64,000 nucleotides of DNA, taken from positions 7,005 to 71,004 of the forward strand of contig CALOBG010000065.1 of the NCBI GenBank assembly GCA_942490995.1, written 5' to 3'. The stretch comes from an uncultured Gammaproteobacteria bacterium (GTDB taxonomy: Bacteria; Pseudomonadota; Gammaproteobacteria; Ga0077536). Of the stretch, positions 49,071-64,000 are shown piece by piece. The position numbers and the translations under genes are program-made. The notes under the pieces were generated by a model. It was not told where the DNA came from. It did no database searches and worked only from the letters and a program-made list of their open reading frames with translations. Within the stretch, counting starts at the first letter, position 1. Every line of letters begins with the position of its first letter.

Positions 49071-50740
49071 CCCGCATTTCTCACCGCGTCGGCGATTAAC
49101 GCAGTCGTCTGGTAGCGATGGGGAAGCGAGCCGCGCATCGCTGGCGTGAACCCGGCAGATCACGCGGCTTGCCTATCTGCGGGCGAGCGAACCCACCCGA
49201 CGGTGTCGGTGGTGGGGTTCGATGGCGAAGGCAGCAGTCTGGTTCGTAGGGGGCGGCTTAACGCGCCGCGACGTCCAGGGCATGGCAGGCGGCGATGAAC
49301 TCCCGCTGATGCGGGCAGCCGCTACTCATCGCGAGCTTGACCCTGCGCACGCTGACCGTGACCACCGCGCCGATCTTCAACAGGCGCAGGCGGATGGTCG
49401 TCGCACAAGCACGCGCGAGCGTGGTGCCGGCCAGTCCGATGCGGCGCACGGCGTGCATCAGCACATAAGCCGCCGACGCCCACCACAGGCGCAGCTGGTT
49501 ACCGCGCAGGGTCTCGGTCGAGAGCCGGTCGGCGAACAGGTCGAGCTGGCATTCCTTGATGCGGTTCTCGGCCTCACCGCGCGCGCAATAGAAGTCCTCG
49601 TACAGCGCCCGTGCCGCCCAGCGTCGCTTCGACAACGAGGTCACGATGAAGCGCGGATTCGATTTGTCACCGGTATGCTCAGCCTTGGCCACCACACGGC
49701 GTGACCGGCTCCAGCTCTTGCGCGTCCGATACGCGAGCTCGCGGAAACAGCGCGCCGGGCTCTGCGTGGCTGCCGACGTCTCCGCCACCGTCTGCAGTTC
49801 ACTGCCTATCGCCCGTACCAGACGGGCGTTACGCGCCAGCCCGAACACGTATTCCACGCCATTTTCCTCGCACCAGCCCATCAACGCCTCGCGGCAGAAG
49901 CCCGAGTCCGCTCGCAGCACGATGCGCGTCTTCGGCCACCGCGCACGCACCTGGGCGACGATGCGTTCGACCTCCTCCACCGCCCCCGCCGCACCGTCGA
50001 TGTTCGCCTGTACCGCAGCTTCGCGGCCAACAGATGCTCGCCGCAGTAGATGTACAACGGCAGGTAGCAGTAGTGATCGTAATAGCCGTGAAAGAACCGT
50101 GCTTCCTGATGGCCGTGCAACGCCACGTCGGTCGCATCCAGATCCAGCACGATCTCCGCCGGCGGCTCGCGGTAAGCCTCCAGGAACAGCGCCACGAACA
50201 ACCGTTCGATCGCTGATTCGTCCGGGCGGATCTTGTGATAGCGATGCGCCCCGCTCGCCGGATAGCATTCCAGACGGCTCAGCGTGCTCTTGCCCGCCAG
50301 TGCTGCACAGTCCTCGCGTAACCGCGGCGACAGCTTGCCCAGCAGCGCACCCATCACCGGGTCATGGCGTAGCTCGTCGTGGTCGTTCAGGTCTTCGTAT
50401 CCCAGCGCCAGCGCGAACACCCGTTGACCGACCAGCGTGCGCAACGAGTGCTCGACCAAGTCAGCCTGCCGCTCGTCGATGAAGCAGCGCGACAGCCGGT
50501 CGATCAGACCGACCGCCGCGTCCGCCTTACCCAGCAGTAGCGCGCCGCCATCCGAGCTCACCGTTCCGCCATCGAACGCCGCCACCACGCGGCGGCGTCC
50601 AGCCCATGAAAACGTCAGTTGTTCAGCGGTACACTGTGTCGGCATCGGGAACCTCCTCTGAGGGGTCGTAACTCGTTCACGCAAAACAAGTTTGATCCTC
50701 TCGGAGGCCCGATGCACTAACTACGTGTGAGAAATCCGGG
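49071..50740 (-). mobile_element. IS1380-family insertion sequence, 1670 bp
   Basis: Terminal IRs CCCGCATTTCTCAC (49071-49084) and GTGAGAAATCCGGG (50727-50740), 13/14 match; 4-bp target duplication CTAG at 49067-49070 and 50741-50744. Confidence 0.93.
49258..50645 (-). pseudogene. IS1380 DDE transposase, frameshifted at 50011-50012
   Basis: FDGGTVSSDGG, LDLDATD, RADSGF, RGEAENRIKE; removing 2 nt (TA) restores AAKLRQANIDGAAG. Confidence 0.9.
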
Positions 50741-53339: not shown

Positions 53340-56231
53340 TCATAAGCGCTCAACCTGCATGCCGGCTTCACGCATGGCCGCCGCACTTGCGGCCCCGCCG
53401 ATGACCGCGGCGCAGCCGCGGTCGGCAACGAGGAAACGCTGCCCGACGCGAACCAGGTCGGCATGGGTAACCGCCAGAGCGGCGTCGCGATATTTTTTGC
53501 GATAAGCGTCATCGCGCCCGCACAGGGCATTGATGAACGCGCGTTCGGCTTCTCCGGCCGGGGAGCGCGGCTGATCGAGGGCGCGGATCGTGCCCAGGAT
53601 CGATTCCTCGACGCGCTGCGGGTCATTGTGATCGGTATACCACGCCAGCGCGCGGTCGAAATCGTGCAGGGTTTCGCGCAGACGTGGATCGCGGTAGGAG
53701 TAAAACCTGAACGTGCCGCTGTCGGAATCGTAGCCCGCGCCAGAGCCGTAGGCGCCGCCCTGCTCGCGTATCTCGCGATGCAGAAAACCATCCTGGAGGT
53801 AACGCGCGAGTACCGACATCACCGGGGCATCGTTCGACGATGCTTCAGCGGCGCTATACGCCTTGGCGCAGAAATTGACCTGCGAGTTCGTGATCCAGGC
53901 GTTGGCGGTATCGTGCTCCTCAAGTGCCGCATCGAAAGCGCGGAAGGGCGAGCTGCCGTGTTCGACCGCGGCGCTGAGCTGCGCGTGGGCGCCGCGCAGA
54001 ACGTCGCCTTCTCCGATCATCGCGATCCGGCGCGGGGCCTCAGCAAGCTTGTCCCGGATCGAAGCGAACAACTCAAACAGGGCGTCGAGCGCGGCGATGT
54101 CCAGCTGAGCGCTGGCGGTTCTCTGCAGCAGCTTGACCGCGCTGGGACCATCCCAGACTTCGTCCAGCGCGGCGGTGCGGGAAAGTGGACGCGCGGCGGC
54201 GAGGATTGCCAGATGGTGGCCACGCTCGGTGATCGACTGCTCGGCCTCGGCGCGTGATTGGCGCAGCAGCTCGTGCAGTCGCGCATGTTCGTCAAAGCGC
54301 ACGCCGGAAACGATCTCTTCGCTCGTGCAAATAATATCGTTGCGCTTGCGCGCGAGGCCTTTGCCCGAAACGATCAGCCAGGCGTGCGACGCATTGGCGT
54401 CGCCCAGTACCGGGCGCGACAGCGGATACACCGAATAAGTCCCACTCAGGACACGCCGCGCCTGCACGGCAAGGTAGTCTTCGCTGCCACAGCCCAGTTC
54501 CGTCACGTATTCGCACCACAGCGGCAGCACGCCGATCTCGGCAGCACTCAGCAGGGGCAGGCGCAATGCCAGTTTGATGCGGAACACGCCGTTCGTGCCG
54601 CACTCGTACTCAGCGATCGGTGCGGCCGTTCCGTGCACCGCAACGGGTTGCTGCAGTGGCTGTGCCGGCGGTACATCAGCGAGCGTGACGCGCGGCAGGA
54701 CGCGGTCATCGTCGATCTGCGCCTGGCGCTGACGCAGGGCCAGGGCGCGCTCATGCAAGGCGGCCAGCGCACGCGTATCCATGCCCGCGCGCAAGGCCTC
54801 GAGGCGGGCCGCCTCGCAGGCCGCGTCACGCGCATGCTTTTCACTGTCGGGACGCATCACGACGCGTACTCGATGCGGGTTGTCGAGCAATACGCGCGCA
54901 ACCAGGGCGCGCAGGTAGCCGGCCTCACCGATCCGCTTGCGCAGACGCGCGATGGCCGGTCCCAGATCGAGCAGGTCCAGCGCCGCGCCACGGTACATCG
55001 CCGCCGGCATCATCCGTCCCATGAGCTGTAGTCCGAACGGATAGCTGCCGCCGCCGATGTCTCGCTGCGCGAGTTCGAGGCGGTCGACTACCGCGTCGAG
55101 CGCGTCGGCATCCATACCATCGTCAGCAAACCTGGCGATAACCGCGACGATATCCCGTTCCAGGGCCTCGGCGTGCGCGACCTCGCTGCCCTCGACCCCG
55201 CACAGAAACACCAGCTGGCGGGTCGAGTCGTCGAGTCCGCACAGTTCCGACGGCGCCGACGCCAGCGTCGTCGACTCCAGGTAGTGCCGCAACGGCGAGG
55301 CGCCATGTTCGAGCAGGATGGTCTCCAGCAGATGGCCCTCGATGAAAGCATCGGCGTCGGCACTCGTGCCGAACATCCAGCCCCAGACGATATGCGTTTG
55401 CGCCGCGCCGTCCTCGTCGACGGCATAGCTGAATTCGTGTTCGCGTGGCGCGATGAACGGCGATTGCAGCGGGCTTACCAGCTGCGAGCGGCGTTCGTCG
55501 AAATGGTCGAGTGCCAGCTCGGCGAAGCGGGCGTGCTGTTCGGCGACCGGGAAATTGCCGTAGGTCATCAGCACCGCGTTCGACGGGTGGTAGTGGCGGG
55601 CATGGAAAGCGCGCAGTTGTTCATGACTCAGGTCGGGAATGCGCAGCGGATCGCCGCCGCTGTTGTGGTGATACACCGCGTCCGGAAACAACACCGTATG
55701 CAGGTGTTGCCACAGTTGCGTCAGCGGTGAGCTCATGGCGCCCTTCATTTCGTTGTAGACCACGCCATGCAGTTCCAGCCTGCTATCCGCACCTTCGCCT
55801 CTGACCTCGACTCGCCAGCCTTCCTGGGCGAAATCGAGCGGATCCAGGCGCGGGAAAAACACCGCATCCAGGTACACGGCAAGCAGATTCTCATAGTCCT
55901 TGTGATTCTGGGTCGCGAACGGGTAGGCGGTGGCGTCGCCGCTGGTGAAGGCGTTCATATAGGTATTGAGCGAACGCCGCAGCATCATGAAAAACGGATC
56001 GCGCACGGGATAACGCCGCGAACCGCACAAGGTCGTGTGCTCGAGAATATGGGCTACCCCGGACGAGTCGTCAGGCAGGGTCGGGAACGCGATCATGAAT
56101 GCGTTGTGTGGATCCTCGCTGGCGAGGTGATAGTGCCGCGCGCCGGTCGGCTGATGTCGATATTGCGTATAGGTCACCCCCAGTGCCGCAACCGGAAAGG
56201 ACTCTACAACTTCGAACATTTGATTTGCCAT
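53340..56231 (-). CDS. M16C metallopeptidase (presequence protease/PreP-like insulinase)
   Basis: GVAHILEHTTLCGS (HxxEH), YPVRDPFF, MNAFT, GVVYNEMKG, REQGGAYG, SYRDP. Confidence 0.95.
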   Translation of the reverse strand: MANQMFEVVESFPVAALGVTYTQYRHQPTGARHYHLASEDPHNAFMIAFPTLPDDSSGVAHILEHTTLCGSRRYPVRDPFFMMLRRSLNTYMNAFTSGDATAYPFATQNHKDYENLLAVYLDAVFFPRLDPLDFAQEGWRVEVRGEGADSRLELHGVVYNEMKGAMSSPLTQLWQHLHTVLFPDAVYHHNSGGDPLRIPDLSHEQLRAFHARHYHPSNAVLMTYGNFPVAEQHARFAELALDHFDERRSQLVSPLQSPFIAPREHEFSYAVDEDGAAQTHIVWGWMFGTSADADAFIEGHLLETILLEHGASPLRHYLESTTLASAPSELCGLDDSTRQLVFLCGVEGSEVAHAEALERDIVAVIARFADDGMDADALDAVVDRLELAQRDIGGGSYPFGLQLMGRMMPAAMYRGAALDLLDLGPAIARLRKRIGEAGYLRALVARVLLDNPHRVRVVMRPDSEKHARDAACEAARLEALRAGMDTRALAALHERALALRQRQAQIDDDRVLPRVTLADVPPAQPLQQPVAVHGTAAPIAEYECGTNGVFRIKLALRLPLLSAAEIGVLPLWCEYVTELGCGSEDYLAVQARRVLSGTYSVYPLSRPVLGDANASHAWLIVSGKGLARKRNDIICTSEEIVSGVRFDEHARLHELLRQSRAEAEQSITERGHHLAILAAARPLSRTAALDEVWDGPSAVKLLQRTASAQLDIAALDALFELFASIRDKLAEAPRRIAMIGEGDVLRGAHAQLSAAVEHGSSPFRAFDAALEEHDTANAWITNSQVNFCAKAYSAAEASSNDAPVMSVLARYLQDGFLHREIREQGGAYGSGAGYDSDSGTFRFYSYRDPRLRETLHDFDRALAWYTDHNDPQRVEESILGTIRALDQPRSPAGEAERAFINALCGRDDAYRKKYRDAALAVTHADLVRVGQRFLVADRGCAAVIGGAASAAAMREAGMQVERL

Positions 56232-56381
56232 CGGGTGGGATCAGGCTCCGTTTGTGCAGTGGCGGCGCGCGCCGTTCGCGGTCCGCGTCTGATGCGCTGG
56301 CGCTTCGCGGCGCTATACTGCGTGATCGCTAAATGACGTTCCGCTGCCGCTCGCGCCGGACCGGACCCTGGAGAAACAGCC

Positions 56382-56864
56382 ATGCCTTCGTTCGATATCG
56401 TATCCGAGGTCGACCAGCACGAATTAACCAACGCCGTCGACCAGGCAACTCGTGAACTATCCACGCGTTTTGACTTCAAGGGCACGAATGCCCGCATTGA
56501 GCGCAATGATAATGTCATCACGCTCATTGCAGAAGCTGAATTTCAAACCCGGCAGATTCTCGAGATCCTGCAGAACAAGCTTGGCGGCCGGGGTATCGAC
56601 ATCGATTGCCTGGAACTCGGGACGGTATCGACGAATGTCGCCGAGGCGCGCCTGCCGATCACGGTGCGCGAAGGTGTAGACAAGGACCTGGCGCGCAAAA
56701 TGACCAAGCTGATCAAGGATTCGAAACTCAAGGTCCAGTCCCAGATCCAGCAGAACCAACTGCGGGTGACCGGCAAGAGCCGTAACGATCTGCAAAATGT
56801 GATCAGCATGCTCAAGGCGGCCAAGCTTGAATTTCCACTGCAGTTCAAGAATTTTCGCGATTGA
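56382..56864 (+). CDS. yajQ: YajQ-family nucleotide-binding protein
   Basis: MPSFDIVSEVD, RFDFKG, VQSQIQ..QLRVTGKSRNDLQ, QFKNFRD. Confidence 0.96.
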   Translation: MPSFDIVSEVDQHELTNAVDQATRELSTRFDFKGTNARIERNDNVITLIAEAEFQTRQILEILQNKLGGRGIDIDCLELGTVSTNVAEARLPITVREGVDKDLARKMTKLIKDSKLKVQSQIQQNQLRVTGKSRNDLQNVISMLKAAKLEFPLQFKNFRD

Positions 56865-56874
56865 GTGCTGGCCG

Positions 56875-57066
56875 GTGAGTTTCGATCAGAGCGAGGCCTT
56901 CTTTGACTGCCCGTATTGCGGCGAGCGCATCAGTATCCTGGTCGACCACAGCGTCGAATCGCAGGACTATATCGAAGACTGCGAAGTCTGCTGCCAACCA
57001 ATTTCACTGCGCCTTGAAATCGAGGCGGACCAGCTACGCGTGCGTGCCGCGCGCGACGACGGCTGA
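56875..57066 (+). CDS. CPXCG-motif cysteine-rich small protein
   Basis: CPYCGE...QDYIEDCEVCCQPI; GTG at 56875. Confidence 0.88.
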   Translation: MSFDQSEAFFDCPYCGERISILVDHSVESQDYIEDCEVCCQPISLRLEIEADQLRVRAARDDG

Positions 57067-57090
57067 ACGCCCGACTCCGGCAAAGCAGCA

Positions 57091-57408
57091 ATGGAACTGA
57101 GCGCGCTACTGCTGTGCGGCCTCACTTACGTGCTGTGGACATGGGTGATCCGAGGCCGCGAGATTGTCGATCGCGTGTCGAGCAGATTGTGTCGTGACCT
57201 GGATTTGCAGCGCCTCGACGGCTCCGTCGCACTCGCCGATCTCGGCCTCGAGCGCCGCCGACATAGCCTGTTGGTGCGACGGATTTACGCCTTCGAATAC
57301 TCGACAAGTGGCAGCGACCGCCGTTCGGGGCGGGTCTGCCTGTTGAACACCGTGCCGGTATGGGCGCGCCTGGAACATCCGCAAGGCCCGCTCCACATCG
57401 ACTTATAA
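57091..57408 (+). CDS. DUF3301-like membrane-anchored protein
   Basis: N-terminal TM, C...LQRLDGSV, RIYAFEYS..G..RRSG. Confidence 0.75.
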   Translation: MELSALLLCGLTYVLWTWVIRGREIVDRVSSRLCRDLDLQRLDGSVALADLGLERRRHSLLVRRIYAFEYSTSGSDRRSGRVCLLNTVPVWARLEHPQGPLHIDL

Positions 57409-57443: not shown

Positions 57444-60431
57444 TCAGTCGGCGTCGCTGCCCTGCAGGTGTTCGGCAAGTTCGTCGATCAAGGATTGGTC
57501 GTGATCCTTGGCGGCTTTACGGGCGGCCTCCGCGCGTTGCTTGATGCGTTCGATATGGGCTTTCTGATTGGCCAGCACTTCGCGCTGCTCGGCGCTGTTT
57601 TCGAGATCGGACTGTTCCGAGATCCAGGCGTCGAGCTCGTGCTTCAGATCGGCCCGGGCCTGTTCGACATGGACCTGGTGCGCGGCGAGATTCCCCGCTG
57701 AAGCGACCGCCTGCGCCTGCACGTCGGCACGCGCCTTCTCGGTACGAGCGACCTCTTCCGCGGCTAGATTGGCCGCGGCCTCGAGCTTCTCGAGGTCTTC
57801 GCGCGTATCGGAGTCAAGCTGAGGCGTTTCGCGCCTGAGCGACTCGATCTCGGCTTCGATGCGCTCGCGCTTTTCCTGGGCGGCGTCTTTTTCGCGCTGC
57901 GCGAGCTCAAGGGCGAGACGCAGACGTTTCGATTCGAGTTCAAGGCGCTCGCGCTCGACGCGCATATCGGCCTCTTCCTGCATCCGCTTGCGTGCATGCG
58001 CGGCCTTGAACTCGGTGACTACCTTCTGCGCTTCGTCGGCTGCCGCGATGCGCGCGGCTTCGGCGGCGTCGCGCTCACGGCGCGCGCGCTGCAGTTCGAC
58101 CGCGTTGCGCGCCAGCTCCTGCTCCAGCGCGGCGCGTTCGGACTGGACCTTCTGGTTGAGTTCCTCGCGCAGGCGGCGCTTGAGCTCGATCTCCTGGCGT
58201 TCGCGCAGCGCCGCCTCGGCGGCACTGGCCTGCTCAACCTGCTCGAGTCGGTTCTGGTAGTCGCGGGCCTGCGCGAGCTGCGCGCGGGCCTGCGCGGACT
58301 GTTTCTCTACCCGTTCCTGCTCGTCGCGCAGACGCGCTTCGGCTTCCACCTTCTGCTGTTTGAGGCGTTGCAGTTCTTCGGCCTGCCAGGCATAGCTCTC
58401 ACGCAGTTTTGCTTCTTCGTCCTGCAGGCGCCGTTCCATCTCGGCTCGCACTTGCTCGACACGCAGTGCCTGCTCCTCGCGCTCGCGCTCGACCTGGCGC
58501 TCGGCTTCGGCCCGAGCCTGCTCGAGTTCTTCCTTCAGTCGTCGTGCTTCTGACAGTTCGCGCTGGGCCTGTTCCGCGGCCTGCTCGAGCTTGCCGCGTT
58601 CGGCCAGTTCGGCCTCGAGTTTCTGTTGCGCTTCGCGCGCTGCTTCTTCACGCGCGCGCTGAAGTTCGGCACTGGCTTTCTCGCGCTCGAGGGCAATCTG
58701 CTTTTCGGCTTCGCCCTGAGCGGCCTTGCGCGCGGCCTCGGTTTCGGCCCGGATCTCTTCCTCGCGGCGCTCGGCTTCGTGCCGTTCAGCCTGGTGACGT
58801 TGCTCAGCTTCCTGCTCGATCTGCTTGCGCGCGTCAAGCAACTCGGCATTGATTTTGGCCCGCTCGGCAGCGATCTGTTTTTCAGCTTCGTCCTGGGCTG
58901 CCTTGCGCGCCGCCTCGGCCGCGGCAAGCACGGCCTTTTCACGACGCTTGGATTCGAGTTTCTGCTCGGCCACCTGCTCGGCGAGCTTGCGCGCACGTGC
59001 GAGCTCGGCCTTGGCTTTCGCCTGCGCGGCCTTGATCTGTTTTTCGGCCTGCTCCTGCGCCGCCTTGCGGGCGGCAAGTGTGGCCGCCTGGATCGCACGC
59101 TCGCGGCTCAGGCGTTCCTCTTCGGCCCGTGCCGCGCTGGCCTGGGCTGCGCTGGCATGGGCCGCGCTATCGCTGGATTCGGCCAGCCGCAACTCGTTGA
59201 TCCCGAGTTTCACGCTCAGCGCGGCAGCTTCGGTAGCGGGGTCCTGCGGGCTCTCCTTGGCGCTTTTGTGCGAAGACGGCACCGGTGCGGGTGCCGGCGC
59301 GGGGCGATCGGCATCGGCGGTCGTGTCGTCTTCGCTGAGGCTGAGATCGACGTCACCATCGGAGGCCGGTACAGGGCTCGCTTCGCTATAGGCAACCAGG
59401 CCACCCTCAAGGAAATGCACGTCGAATCCACGTTCGGCGAGCAGAAACGCGGCCACGCAACTGAGTGAACCATCGTCGCAATAAACGAGGTAGGTTTTGC
59501 TCGAATCGAGCCGCCCGCTATGCATGCGCAGTGTATTTAGCGGATGGTTGATACTGTTTTTGAGTGCGTTGGCGGCGTGCTGCTCGGGAAAGCGAACATC
59601 AAGCCAGACCGCACCGCGCGTGGCTTCGATGTCACGCCCGGCGCTGAGGCTGACGGCGCTGAGCAGCGGTTTTTTGATCAGGTTGGAAAAATCTTCATTG
59701 CTCAGGCGGACAAGCTCACCGTCAGTGAGCATGGTTACGGTAGCGTTGCGCGGGCCACCGCCAACCAGCGCCTCTTCGCCGAAGGCATCGCCCGGACCAA
59801 TCAGGGCCAGGCGATAGCCGGACGCACTGGGACCGGAGGCGCGGGTGATCTCGGCGCGACCACGGACCACGACATAGTAGAAATCACCGTCGGCGTCCTG
59901 CTTCACGATGACGTCGCCCTGCGCCGCGGTGATGGTCTCCATACGGCTGAAAATACGGTGGATGTTCGACGCCGGCAGATTGGAAAACAGCTTCGACTGG
60001 AGCATGCGCGTCATCCAGTCGTCGTCTTCCTCGGAGTCAATTTCCGCAACCTGAAAGGCGCGCCGCTCCTGTTCAGCCTGGTCAGTGCGCATCTTGTCCA
60101 GTAAGGCGCGGTCGATACGCAATACGGACACAGCGCTTTCGGCGCGCGCCGACATCTTGCGTGGCTGGAGCTGGGCGAGCGCGTGCACGGCATCATCGCT
60201 GCCGCCGACCAGGCGCTGAATGGTCTGCCCGCCGCTGAGTAACTCGAGACGACCCTCGAGCAGATAAAAGGAGTACGGATCGGTGTCACCTTCGTTGAAC
60301 ACGAAAGCGCCACGTTCAAAATTCAGGACTTCGGACTGGTCCAGGATCTCGGCCTGGTTCTGCGGCGATAGCACGCCCAGCGGCACCAGGGTACTTACCA
60401 GCCCCTCAAAATTCGATTCCACTGCCGACAT
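57444..60431 (-). CDS. Giant cNMP-cNMP-rhodanese-coiled-coil protein, paralog A (995 aa)
   Basis: Start moved to ATG 60431 (MSAVESNF), which aligns with paralog B; degenerate CNB (LAQLQPRKMSA), canonical CNB (FGEEALVGGGPRNATV), rhodanese (WLDVR, YCDDGS, LEGG), long E/A/R/K/Q-rich helical region. Confidence 0.9.
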   Translation of the reverse strand: MSAVESNFEGLVSTLVPLGVLSPQNQAEILDQSEVLNFERGAFVFNEGDTDPYSFYLLEGRLELLSGGQTIQRLVGGSDDAVHALAQLQPRKMSARAESAVSVLRIDRALLDKMRTDQAEQERRAFQVAEIDSEEDDDWMTRMLQSKLFSNLPASNIHRIFSRMETITAAQGDVIVKQDADGDFYYVVVRGRAEITRASGPSASGYRLALIGPGDAFGEEALVGGGPRNATVTMLTDGELVRLSNEDFSNLIKKPLLSAVSLSAGRDIEATRGAVWLDVRFPEQHAANALKNSINHPLNTLRMHSGRLDSSKTYLVYCDDGSLSCVAAFLLAERGFDVHFLEGGLVAYSEASPVPASDGDVDLSLSEDDTTADADRPAPAPAPVPSSHKSAKESPQDPATEAAALSVKLGINELRLAESSDSAAHASAAQASAARAEEERLSRERAIQAATLAARKAAQEQAEKQIKAAQAKAKAELARARKLAEQVAEQKLESKRREKAVLAAAEAARKAAQDEAEKQIAAERAKINAELLDARKQIEQEAEQRHQAERHEAERREEEIRAETEAARKAAQGEAEKQIALEREKASAELQRAREEAAREAQQKLEAELAERGKLEQAAEQAQRELSEARRLKEELEQARAEAERQVEREREEQALRVEQVRAEMERRLQDEEAKLRESYAWQAEELQRLKQQKVEAEARLRDEQERVEKQSAQARAQLAQARDYQNRLEQVEQASAAEAALRERQEIELKRRLREELNQKVQSERAALEQELARNAVELQRARRERDAAEAARIAAADEAQKVVTEFKAAHARKRMQEEADMRVERERLELESKRLRLALELAQREKDAAQEKRERIEAEIESLRRETPQLDSDTREDLEKLEAAANLAAEEVARTEKARADVQAQAVASAGNLAAHQVHVEQARADLKHELDAWISEQSDLENSAEQREVLANQKAHIERIKQRAEAARKAAKDHDQSLIDELAEHLQGSDAD
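58590..59075 (-). repeat. Three in-frame tandem repeats AARKAAQxxAEKQI in paralog A
   Basis: Units start at 59075, 58913 and 58736 (periods of 54 and 59 codons). Confidence 0.85.
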
Positions 60432-60562
60432 TGATCTCACGCATGGGTTTCCGGTAGCCACATTTCTAACGCTGTGCTTACGCGACCGCGCCGCAGCAAC
60501 TGCTGAGCGGACTTCAAATATATGCACTCTTTGCAATTGACACATGGATGCCTTGCACTAAC

Positions 60563-60578
60563 TGTGAAGGGCATCACG
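60563..60578. promoter_or_regulatory. CRP/Vfr/Clp-type binding site in the divergent intergenic region
   Basis: TGTGA-AGGGCA-TCACG versus consensus TGTGA-N6-TCACA (9 of 10). Confidence 0.7.
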
Positions 60579-60804
60579 CTGAAATGTACCAAATCTGATG
60601 TAATTTTCGACGTGCCTCAGGCGTAACGGGCCTAAGCTGTCGAAACTTAAGCGATTTTTGGAAAAATACTCGAATCGCTCACAGTTTACCGAGCGCCGCC
60701 TCGCTGGCGGCGGGACAAGCGGCGGCGAAATCGCGCTGCGGCGTGTCAAGGGCGCGAATCAGCGTAGAATGTCGCTCGAATTCTAGCAGCGGAATCAGGC
60801 TACC

Positions 60805-61011
60805 GTGTCGAGCGAGGAAACCAAGTCAATTCAATACCATATCCTTGAATTGCAGACCGAGCACCGTGATCTCGATCAGATTGTGGCGACCCTGTCGGAC
60901 AACCCGGACGTTGACCAACTGCTGCTGCGACGCATGAAAAAACGCAAATTGTACCTAAAAGACGAGATCGCCCGACTCAAGAGCGAACTCATTCCCGATC
61001 TCGACGCATGA
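60805..61011 (+). CDS. DUF465/YdcH-family small helical protein
   Basis: LQTEHRDLD..DQLLLRRMKKRKLYLKDEI..LIPDLDA; GTG start; candidate -10 TAGAAT at 60765-60770. Confidence 0.92.
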   Translation: MSSEETKSIQYHILELQTEHRDLDQIVATLSDNPDVDQLLLRRMKKRKLYLKDEIARLKSELIPDLDA

Positions 61012-61051
61012 ACCGTCGCGCTGCGCCGCTTAACTCCGTGCACGCATTGCG

Positions 61052-63487
61052 ATGAGCGACGATCCCGGCACGCTGGAGGCCCGGGTCGGCTTTCTTGTCC
61101 CACTCAACAAGTTACCGCCGGAACGGCGGGCGCGCCTGCTGGAACAATCGCAGGTGATCACCCTGCGCAAGAAGCAGACCCTGTTCAAGCAAGGTGAACG
61201 AGACGATTTCACCTATTATCTGATCGACGGCGAAATCGAAATGTACGCCGACGACTCCCTGATCAAACGCGTTACGGGTGGCGACGGCGCTTCGTTTCAG
61301 CCGCTCGCGCAGTTGCAACCGCGACAGATGAGCGCCGTTGCCAAAAGCAAAGCGGAGATCCTGCAGGTCAAGCGCAGCCTCCTCGATCAGCTCCTGAGCA
61401 TGGACGAGGCCGCGCCGGAGCCCGACACCGGCATGGAAGTCGAGGAAATGGAGGCCGACCAGGGCGGCGACTGGCTGATGACCCTGCTGCAGTCGGAATT
61501 GTTTACCCGCATTCCGCCGTCCAATATTCAGGGTCTGCTCGACACCCTCGAAACAATTTCTCTGCAGGCCGGTGACGTCGTCATCAAGCAGGGTGAACCC
61601 GGAGATTTTTATTACGCCATCCAGAGCGGCGCCTGCGAAGTTGTGCGCAGCGGCGCGAACCAGCGCGAGATCAAGCTCGCCGAACTCGAGACCGGCGCAA
61701 CTTTTGGTGAGGAGGCGCTGATCTCCGGCGCCAAACGCAATGCCACGGTGCGGATGACGCGCGCCGGCGATCTCGCGCGGCTGACCAAGGAAGATTTTTC
61801 GCGCCTGATCAAGGCGCCTCTGCTGAATTCGATGACCCGTCAACAGGCCGAAACAAAAATTGCCGCCGGCGCCACCTGGCTCGACGTGCGGTTTGAGGAC
61901 GAGTTTGCCCATAACGGCATCGCCGGGGCCGTCAACATACCGCACGGCACGCTGCGTACGCGTATGGACGAACTCAATCCGGAGTCCGCCTACGTGGCCT
62001 ACTGCGATACCGGCGGACGCAGTTCGGCGGCCGCGTTTCTGCTTGCCGAGAAGGGCTTCGAGATTGGCTACGTCGAAGGCGGCGCGGTCACCGAGCCGAT
62101 ACCGGAAAAATCCGCGGCGCCTGCGCCGGCAAAGAAAGCCCGGTCAACGACCAGGAAATCAAGTACCAGCACGGCCGGTAAATCCAGCCCGGAGCAGGCG
62201 CAAGCTGCGTCGAGCGCGGCGCCGACCCGGGAACAGGACAGCCAGGCATTGCTGGAGGCGAGTGCGCTCGCGTCCAGCCTCAGCGCCGAAGCCGAAAAGG
62301 CTCAACTTACCATCGACAAGGCACGCGCAATGATGGCCGAAGCAGAGGCCATGAAGCGCGAGGCGGAACGAGTGGTCGCGGAGAAACTCGCGGCGGAACG
62401 TAATCGGATTGACAGCGAGGCGACCAGGCTTAAAGAGAAACTCGCCGAAGCGGAAGCCGTCAAACTCGAATCACAGCGCGCCGCACAAGCCAGGATCGAC
62501 GAAGAACAGCAGCGCATCAAAGCCGAAGCGAGCAAACTGGAACAACGCCTCGCCGAAGCCGAACGGCTGAAAGCGGCTCTCACCGAACAACACAAGGCGG
62601 CCGAAGCGGACGCCGCGCGGCGTCAGGAGGAAGTCGAGCAACGCGTGCGCGCACTCGAAGACCAGACCCGCGAGCGCCTGCAGACCGAGGAGCGGCGCCT
62701 CGAGGCGCTATACCAGGACCAGACCGCGCAGCTCGAATCTCTGCAGGCCGACCGCGAGGTCGAGCTGCGCGCCAGGCTCAGCGACGAACTGGCCACGGAA
62801 CGCAGAAAGTTCGAGCAGGAAGTGCTGCGCACGAACGAAGAACTCGAGCGCGCCCAGGAAGAACGCCGCCAGGCGATCGCGGCAAAGGAAGCGGCAGCGG
62901 AAGAAGCACGTTCCACGATCGCCGAATTCAAGGCCGAACAACAGGCTTTGCAGGTCGAGCAGCAGGCTGCGCTCGATCGCGAGCGCCAGCGCCTGCAGGC
63001 CGAAGCGAAGCGTATCGAACAGATCCGCGCCGAGGCGGGCAAGGCACGCGAGGCGGCCGAGGCCGCGCAACAGGCGGCGGAACTCGAACTGCAACAGGCG
63101 CGGGAGCGCGCCGCCGAGGCCGCTTCAATCGCCGACGAACGCGCTCTGGACGAAATTGAAAAACGCGCCTCGGCCGCGCAACGATCGTTGAATAAGGCGA
63201 TCCGGGCCGAAACCGTCGTGCAGACCGCGGCGCGAGAGAACGAAGACCAGCTCGAGCGCACTTACGACACGGCTACCGAGATCAATCTGTTGCTCGAGAA
63301 GGAATTGAAGGAATTTGTCGGCGACCAGGAAAAATTTCAGGAATCGACCCTGCAGCGTGAAGTGCTGTCACGCCAGAAGGAAATGGTCGAACGGATCAAG
63401 GCTCGCGCCGCACAGGTGCAACGCGAGCGCGAGACGCAGAACCTGAGCCTGCTCGACGAAATCGAACAGCAATTAAAAAAGAACTGA
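61052..63487 (+). CDS. Giant cNMP-cNMP-rhodanese-coiled-coil protein, paralog B (811 aa)
   Basis: Degenerate CNB (LAQLQPRQMSA), canonical CNB (FGEEALISGAKRNATV), rhodanese (WLDVR, YCDTGGRS, VEGG), P/S/A/K linker, long charged helical region. Confidence 0.92.
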   Translation: MSDDPGTLEARVGFLVPLNKLPPERRARLLEQSQVITLRKKQTLFKQGERDDFTYYLIDGEIEMYADDSLIKRVTGGDGASFQPLAQLQPRQMSAVAKSKAEILQVKRSLLDQLLSMDEAAPEPDTGMEVEEMEADQGGDWLMTLLQSELFTRIPPSNIQGLLDTLETISLQAGDVVIKQGEPGDFYYAIQSGACEVVRSGANQREIKLAELETGATFGEEALISGAKRNATVRMTRAGDLARLTKEDFSRLIKAPLLNSMTRQQAETKIAAGATWLDVRFEDEFAHNGIAGAVNIPHGTLRTRMDELNPESAYVAYCDTGGRSSAAAFLLAEKGFEIGYVEGGAVTEPIPEKSAAPAPAKKARSTTRKSSTSTAGKSSPEQAQAASSAAPTREQDSQALLEASALASSLSAEAEKAQLTIDKARAMMAEAEAMKREAERVVAEKLAAERNRIDSEATRLKEKLAEAEAVKLESQRAAQARIDEEQQRIKAEASKLEQRLAEAERLKAALTEQHKAAEADAARRQEEVEQRVRALEDQTRERLQTEERRLEALYQDQTAQLESLQADREVELRARLSDELATERRKFEQEVLRTNEELERAQEERRQAIAAKEAAAEEARSTIAEFKAEQQALQVEQQAALDRERQRLQAEAKRIEQIRAEAGKAREAAEAAQQAAELELQQARERAAEAASIADERALDEIEKRASAAQRSLNKAIRAETVVQTAARENEDQLERTYDTATEINLLLEKELKEFVGDQEKFQESTLQREVLSRQKEMVERIKARAAQVQRERETQNLSLLDEIEQQLKKN
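62333..62575 (+). repeat. 36-codon tandem repeats (M/L)AEAExxK in paralog B
   Basis: Units start at 62333, 62441 and 62549, exactly 108 nt apart. Confidence 0.8.
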
Positions 63488-63557: not shown

Positions 63558-64000
63558 TCAGGCCGCGGTCGCGGCATCCATACCCATTTGATCGCAGAGA
63601 AATGCGGTCAGAAGACGTTCGGCGCGCTGGTTCAAGTCGACGAAACGCATCCCGATCACGCAGCGCGGTTCTGAATCCACCGTAGTCAGGTACAACAATC
63701 GGCAGTCGCATTCGAGGTGCGCCGCGCCCGCGGCCAGCGGTAAGGTGATGTCGGCCTTGAACAGCACGTCCGACATCGGATCAACCCTGCCGCCCGCGGG
63801 ATGAAGCTGGCGGGCGGCGGCGATATCGCAACGTAGCTGCAGTCCGTCGGGCGATACATTCAGGGCGAGCACGGGTACTTCTTCGCCGTCGGCGCTGAAA
63901 ATGCGCACCCCGCCATCGATCGGTATACGCGGATACTGGCGCTGTTCGTCAAGCTTTTCGACGAGCTGCCAGACCAGGCTGCCGCGCCTGGCTGGTGATT
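63558..64000 (-). CDS. PilZ-domain protein (5' end probably beyond the window)
   Basis: Frame is open to the window edge: ..LDEQRQYPRIPIDG (RxxxR) and ALNVSPDG ((D/N)xSxxG), C-terminal IGMRF; the ORF track started downstream of RxxxR. Confidence 0.88.
   Translation of the reverse strand, partial: SPARRGSLVWQLVEKLDEQRQYPRIPIDGGVRIFSADGEEVPVLALNVSPDGLQLRCDIAAARQLHPAGGRVDPMSDVLFKADITLPLAAGAAHLECDCRLLYLTTVDSEPRCVIGMRFVDLNQRAERLLTAFLCDQMGMDAATAA

Follow-up and report, generated by a model that had tools for sequence, protein, structure and literature searches.

The CRP-type box between two divergent genes for large cyclic-nucleotide-binding proteins, in the DNA of an uncultured gammaproteobacterium, probably acts as a class I-type activator site at which a CRP-subfamily factor (CRP, Vfr or Clp-like) serves the leftward 995-aa gene only. 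In the proposed mechanism, a dimeric CRP-subfamily factor would bind this box, box 1, about 60.5 bp upstream of a transcription start near 60510. The bound factor would recruit RNA polymerase to the leftward promoter (P_left), which appears to combine a good -10 element, TATATT, with a poor -35. A tandem site, box 2, placed at about -102.5, probably strengthens activation in many relatives and appears as a decayed remnant here. The right arm, comprising a DUF465 gene and the second paralog, would be transcribed from its own promoter with the -10 element TAGAAT, in no fixed geometry with the box. We infer which factor binds, that it activates and does not repress, where transcription starts and that cAMP is the signal. 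All coordinates refer to the window, that is, the whole stretch of 64,000 nucleotides that was analysed.

The genes flanking the divergent intergenic region (IGR) are the following.

57444-60431, minus strand: left gene, 995 aa, with two cNMP-binding domains and a rhodanese domain (Pfam), and a long coiled coil.
60805-61011, plus strand: DUF465 gene, 68 aa, GTG start (Pfam PF04325), the first gene of the right arm.
61052-63487, plus strand: right paralog, 811 aa, with two cNMP-binding domains and a rhodanese domain (Pfam), and a coiled coil.

The right paralog has the same domain order as the left gene product and is 40% identical to it over the N-terminal 357 aa. Both flanking proteins had been taken for cyclic-nucleotide-binding paralogs in the preliminary description, and the Pfam matches and the level of identity bear this out. 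The picture of a simple divergent pair flanking the box needs one correction: the DUF465 gene, which always lies directly upstream of the right-type paralog, intervenes between the box and the right paralog. The phosphate-binding motif of domain 2, FGEEAL..PRNATV, is invariant between the paralogs, and the best PDB matches of this domain are the cyclic-nucleotide-binding domains of PKG and PKA. Domain 1 carries an atypical but conserved motif, LAQLQPRxMSA. The literature searched contained no relevant report of a protein with both cNMP-binding and rhodanese domains.

ATG 60431 is the most likely start of the left gene, since its orthologs align from residue 1 of the sequence MSAVESNF... that begins there. 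The upstream ATG at 60545, which opens the longest reading frame (1033 aa), was rejected as the start on the same alignment. This codon falls within the predicted -35 region, and the transcript would not include it; an automatic annotation based on the long reading frame would hide the promoter.

The window is part of a contig of about 100.6 kb. Its remaining sequence is an ordinary gammaproteobacterial chromosome, with the dcw cluster for cell division and the cell wall, cytochrome b (bc1-type), hisGD, secDF, tgt/queA, an M16 peptidase and yajQ. The gene order M16 peptidase, yajQ (DUF520), CPXCG zinc ribbon protein, DUF3301 protein and left gene (53340-57408 up to the left gene) is kept in most of the close relatives examined. 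On the other side, the ORF at 63558-63908, convergent with the right paralog, has no Pfam match; in a contig of a relative, the equivalent position is occupied by a gene for a 152-aa PilZ protein. A DDE transposase (DDE_Tnp_1_4, 49258-50268), apparently belonging to an IS element, is situated between a CDF-family cation-efflux gene and the M16 peptidase region. The loci designated L069 and L071 carry other genes at this stretch (APH family, small ORFs).

The box and the leftward promoter comprise the following elements.

60563-60578, no strand assigned: box 1, CRP-type, TGTGA-AGGGCA-TCACG (TGTGAAGGGCATCACG), centred at 60570.5.
60517-60522, minus strand: putative -10 hexamer of P_left, TATATT, of which TAnnnT is conserved in fixed register with the box.
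60540-60545, minus strand: putative weak -35 of P_left, ATGTGT, with 2/6 matches to TTGACA and a 17-nt spacer.
60509-60511 (about 60510), minus strand: leftward start as predicted from the conserved -10, which would leave a 5' UTR of about 79 nt.
60605-60621, no strand assigned: box 2, a decayed remnant, TTTCGACGTGCCTCAGG, compared with TGTGAAGTGCTTCACC in L069.

Box 1 matches the inverted repeat TGTGA-N6-TCACA at 9 of the 10 half-site positions and has its 6-bp spacer, which qualifies it as a CRP-type box; read toward the left gene, it is CGTGA-N6-TCACA. The exact pattern has an expectation of 0.14 per window and is present in 14 of 100 shuffles, and a match with at most one mismatch to the palindrome is found in 60 of 100 shuffles of the window. 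At up to two mismatches, the window contains 11 sites against 15.9 expected, so that no enrichment of CRP-like sites hinting at a regulon is seen within it. On window-only statistics, box 1 is near chance; its significance comes from relatives.

One genome per GTDB species was scanned for relatives, which yielded 57 loci, all of them from MAGs of uncultured Gammaproteobacteria with protein identities of 70% or less. The left gene is divergent from the DUF465 gene and the right paralog in 34 of the 57, and TGTGA-N6-TCAC[G/C] is present in every one of these orthologous divergent IGRs (34/34). The same gene arrangement was found in the other orientation at L025, L029 and L042, where the box is also present, as it is in five metagenome loci (L059-L063) and in the nearest relative, L069. 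Over about 45 orthologous loci of uncultured Gammaproteobacteria, the half-sites TGTGA and TCACG are essentially invariant. Conservation of the box across orthologous IGRs had been put forward in the preliminary description as a check, and the box is indeed conserved. The nearest relative (L069/L070) was reached through the M16 peptidase, which is 64% identical, with SecD 86% identical; L069 is too diverged for a neutral alignment and sufficient to show that the rightward -10 considered below is not kept. No relative closer than 65% amino acid identity was found in the metagenomes searched.

A box-anchored alignment of 39 sequences gave 1.5-2.4 bits for each of the half-site columns, with unalignable flanks and a 6-bp spacer that is essentially free, except for a weakly conserved first base. 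Invariant half-sites around a free spacer are the signature of a dimeric transcription-factor site. The invariant sequence, the free spacer and the lack of compensatory changes together argue for the site of a dimeric helix-turn-helix protein and against an RNA hairpin. The pattern TGTGA-N6-TCACN occurs 60 times in the 713 kb of the loci and the window, and about 50 of these matches fall inside this IGR. Matches to TGTGA-N6-TCAC outside the IGR with an identifiable context (L021, L053, L002) lie inside ORFs, and the remaining ones, when searched for regulon members in the loci, provided no regulon evidence.

To the left of the box, the sole conserved columns of the 39-locus alignment are A60517, T60521 and A60522; on the minus strand they spell TAnnnT, the positions that are invariant in a sigma-70 -10. 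Of the 39 loci, 35 retain T-12 and 33 retain T-7. The spacing to the box edge is always 40 nt, and no other offset shows an enrichment of TA...T. The hexamer itself varies in the same register across all clades: TATATT, TATAGT, TAAGCT and TAGTCT occur in one clade, and TGcTTTAAT and TGcTTAAAT in clade 2. The centre of the box would be at -60.5 (±1) relative to a predicted start 7 nt after the -10, or at -61.5 if the start is 8 nt after it. At class I promoters, sites are centred near -61.5, -71.5, -82.5 or -92.5, on the face of the DNA that RNA polymerase occupies. The left ATG follows the box at a narrow range of distances, mostly 126-150 nt; L050 and L051 have atypical box distances. In E. 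coli, the positions of CRP motifs peak at -41.5, -61.5 and -93.5 (PMC5957442). The elements named in the preliminary description (TGTGA-N6-TCACG centred at 60570.5, TATATT at 60522-60517 and TGaTGTAAT at 60596-60604) are all present in the window as described, and its leftward -10, with the box near -60.5, is supported by nearly all loci, where TAnnnT stays in register.

The position corresponding to the -35 is occupied by ATGAAT or CTGCGC in relatives. P_left thus combines a recognisable -10 with a poor -35, as would be typical of an activator-dependent class I promoter. A scan of the IGR for sigma-70 promoters and terminators reported no complete leftward promoter, which is the result expected if the promoter depends on an activator.

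An intact box 2, TGTGAA-N4-TTCAC[C/T], is found in 11 of the 39 loci, 41-43 bp beyond box 1 on the side away from the left gene. This corresponds to about -102.5 for P_left and to four helical turns from box 1. Several further loci keep a half-site at this position. Alignment with L069 and L001 shows that box 2 of the window differs by a G-to-T change, a 1-nt insertion and the replacement of TCAC with TCAG; the second site has apparently disappeared in the lineage of the window.

The half-sites of the box agree with both the E. coli CRP and the Vfr consensus, the latter given as ANWWTGNGAWNY:AGWTCACAT, with TGNGA...TCACA as the core (PMC8787478). A Pfam survey revealed no crp, cya or cpdA within the 64-kb window. 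A tblastn search with E. coli CRP revealed no CRP-family gene in the window or in the ±6-kb flanks of the 57 loci, the sole matches being the cNMP-binding domains of the paralogs themselves; within this scope, the result counts against the model. A shorter homolog of 346 aa, with two cNMP-binding domains and a rhodanese domain and lacking the coiled coil, is encoded by Sulfuriflexus mobilis (AP018725.1; L058 7143-9926), where its gene adjoins, and is convergent with, a class I adenylate cyclase gene (cyaA). No CRP-type box was found upstream of this homolog, which shows that not every member of the wider family has the site. The cyclic-nucleotide-binding domains, together with the homolog next to an adenylate cyclase gene, suggest a link to cAMP.

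The same promoter architecture might be served by a factor unresponsive to cAMP, such as a Clp-like protein sensing c-di-GMP or one with some other ligand, which would leave no cAMP feed-forward loop; we regard this as rather unlikely. Clp of Xanthomonas is a CRP-like protein whose ligand is c-di-GMP and not cAMP, and it recognises TGTGA-N6-TCACA, the same type of box as here and likewise in a gammaproteobacterium. YajQ and PilZ proteins belong to families linked to c-di-GMP, and yajQ and the PilZ-like ORF are situated in the conserved neighbourhood of the box. However, the cyclic-nucleotide-binding domains of the target carry a phosphate-binding motif of the PKA/PKG type, which points to cAMP or cGMP, and the short homolog beside cyaA points to cAMP or cGMP signalling in the module as well.

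The elements considered for the right arm are the following.

60755-60770, plus strand: putative right-arm promoter element, cGAATCaGCG-TAGAAT, with the -10 TAGAAT at 60765-60770.
60743-60748, plus strand: right-arm -35 candidate, GTGTCA, with a 16-nt spacer; poorly conserved in relatives.
60596-60604, plus strand: rightward extended -10 candidate, TGaTGTAAT, found in the window only and with no evidence of function.

Of 35 IGRs, 31 contain the element cGAATCnGCG-TAGAAT, which in most cases precedes the DUF465 start by 25-47 nt; L069 has it too. The sequence GCGTAGAAT at 60762-60770 is part of this conserved element and has a single occurrence in the window. The start predicted from it is near 60777, with a 5' UTR of about 28 nt, and GTGTCA/TAGAAT is the only sigma-70-like promoter reported between 60300 and 61100. 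The distance between the box centre and the predicted right-arm start ranges from 127.5 to 416.5 bp among the loci (206.5 bp in the window), and the distance from the box to the DUF465 gene is similarly loose, 102-448 nt. At loci where the DUF465 gene and the right-type paralog occur without a divergent left-type gene, no CRP-like box lies within 600 nt in 7 of 8 cases. The absence of the box where the left gene is absent, together with the variable spacing to the right arm, indicates that the box travels with the left gene.

The preliminary description had let one box drive both arms, as a class I site at -60.5 for the left gene and as a class II site at -40.5 for the right one, with cAMP-CRP co-inducing the two paralogs in a proposed feed-forward loop. 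A class II site, at -41.5, overlaps the -35 and calls for a working -10 about 21 bp beyond it. TGaTGTAAT at 60596-60604 does give -40.5 by arithmetic, and there is a precedent for such sharing in the malX-malI region of E. coli, where divergent promoters share a single CRP site, both at class II distance. The comparison of loci makes this arrangement improbable. The rightward TGaTGTAAT is not supported as a promoter element: it has no counterpart in any relative, L069 included, its place being taken by box 2 or its A-rich flank (the latter in the alignments with L069 and L001), and the class II position of the box for the right arm falls with it. Neither the 39 loci nor L069 show any conserved -10-like element on the right-hand side of box 1 or box 2. 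If rightward transcription began at about 60611, the 5' UTR would moreover extend over about 194 nt and include the conserved TAGAAT promoter. This right-arm promoter is conserved in its own right with no fixed spacing to the box, and the box is missing, in 7 of 8 cases, from loci that have the DUF465 gene and the paralog but no left gene. The region thus does not appear to be organised as a divergent pair sharing one activator site at a fixed distance from both promoters. It differs from malX-malI in that the right-arm promoter is 127-416 bp from the site, with no conserved rightward -10 beside the box. Control of both arms from a single site is not supported, and the box is assigned to the left gene only. 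Geometry derived from a single sequence can mislead: of the two-sided model, only the leftward half survived the comparison with relatives.

Position 16 of the box (60578) is a conserved G, with TCACG in 37 of the 39 loci. Read toward the left gene, the distal half-site is accordingly CGTGA and not TGTGA in the same proportion of loci (37/39), with a constant orientation relative to the left gene. This conserved distal CGTGA is not explained by CRP recognition rules. The position-16 G and the constant orientation suggest constraints beyond those on a symmetric CRP site, as might be the case if the box were a repressor operator or roadblock, or the site of an unrelated factor family sharing the palindrome. 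Little credence is given to such a role, however, as the box is located upstream of the conserved -10 and of the -35 region with no overlap, and a poor -35 combined with a frequent second site in helical phase is typical of activation. A chance palindrome or an RNA hairpin without any DNA-binding role is very improbable, for although the box is near the chance expectation inside the window and its half-sites could pair as a 5-bp stem, about 45 diverged loci share the same sequence around a loop that varies freely, compensatory changes are absent, both predicted starts lie downstream of the box, and a search of 60380-61060 against Rfam gave no match to a known RNA element in the IGR.

As a predicted class I-type activator site, box 1 of P_left most resembles the sites of E. 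coli promoters of the lac P1 type, with the activator at -61.5, the same 16-bp core of the TGTGA-N6-TCACA type, a weak -35 and a good -10. The centre of the box is about 60.5-61.5 bp upstream of the predicted start, and some relatives feature a second upstream site in phase, as tandem-site promoters do. In lac, the site centre is 49.5 from the -12 base; measured in this way, the spacing between the box and the -10 is 48.5, i.e., 1 bp shorter. The leftward promoter also differs from the lac type in its conserved distal half-site, CGTGA, and in its occurrence in uncultured Gammaproteobacteria.

Endoh and Engel are said to have reported in 2009 that Vfr regulates cbpA in Pseudomonas aeruginosa. 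In both that system and the present one, the gene preceded by a CRP-family box encodes a protein that binds cyclic nucleotides but is no transcription factor. The two differ in that the proteins described here are much larger, contain a rhodanese domain and a coiled coil in addition and are encoded by a divergent paralog pair with a DUF465 gene; moreover, the box belongs to one paralog only.

If the prediction holds, an uncultured gammaproteobacterial lineage controls a large cyclic-nucleotide-binding structural protein by a canonical CRP-type class I promoter. This would extend the idea derived from cbpA and Vfr, in which a second, non-transcriptional cAMP receptor is under the control of the first. 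It would also make available a well-delimited regulatory site, whose half-sites do not vary, whose distance to the -10 is fixed and which may be accompanied by a tandem site; E. coli reporters would allow its study with no need to grow the organism. Current knowledge of CRP-type regulation is unchanged by the finding, which is a modest surprise and well supported as a regulatory site.

On a more tentative level, the divergent pair of cNMP-binding, rhodanese and coiled-coil proteins and the DUF465 protein may possibly constitute an uncharacterised, non-transcriptional cyclic-nucleotide effector module of this uncultured gammaproteobacterial lineage. Only one of the paralogs would be wired to the CRP-type factor, and the ratio of the two receptors would then shift with the level of the second messenger. 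If true, this would be an asymmetric feed-forward design, unlike a site shared by both arms or the single cbpA of Pseudomonas.

In distant relatives (UBA4486-type MAGs), a perfect TGTGA-N6-TCACA is found upstream of a second paralog (L030 11347-11387, L036 11271-11286, L031 2845-2860). L030 contains two boxes 25 bp apart, and a -10-like hexamer is located at a nearly equal spacing to the box in L030 and L036.

Conservation of the right-arm promoter element reaches well upstream of the -10 (GCG, GAATC) but does not include the -35, a pattern that suggests either a promoter contact of an unusual kind or the site of another regulator. TAGAAT (60765-60770) and ATTCTA (60780-60785) form an inverted repeat across the predicted right-arm start. 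The same bases make up a contiguous palindrome, GTAGAATTCTAC, in L017, L018, L019, L033, L041 and L044, which is absent in L001 and L069. The inverted repeat could be an operator overlapping the -10.
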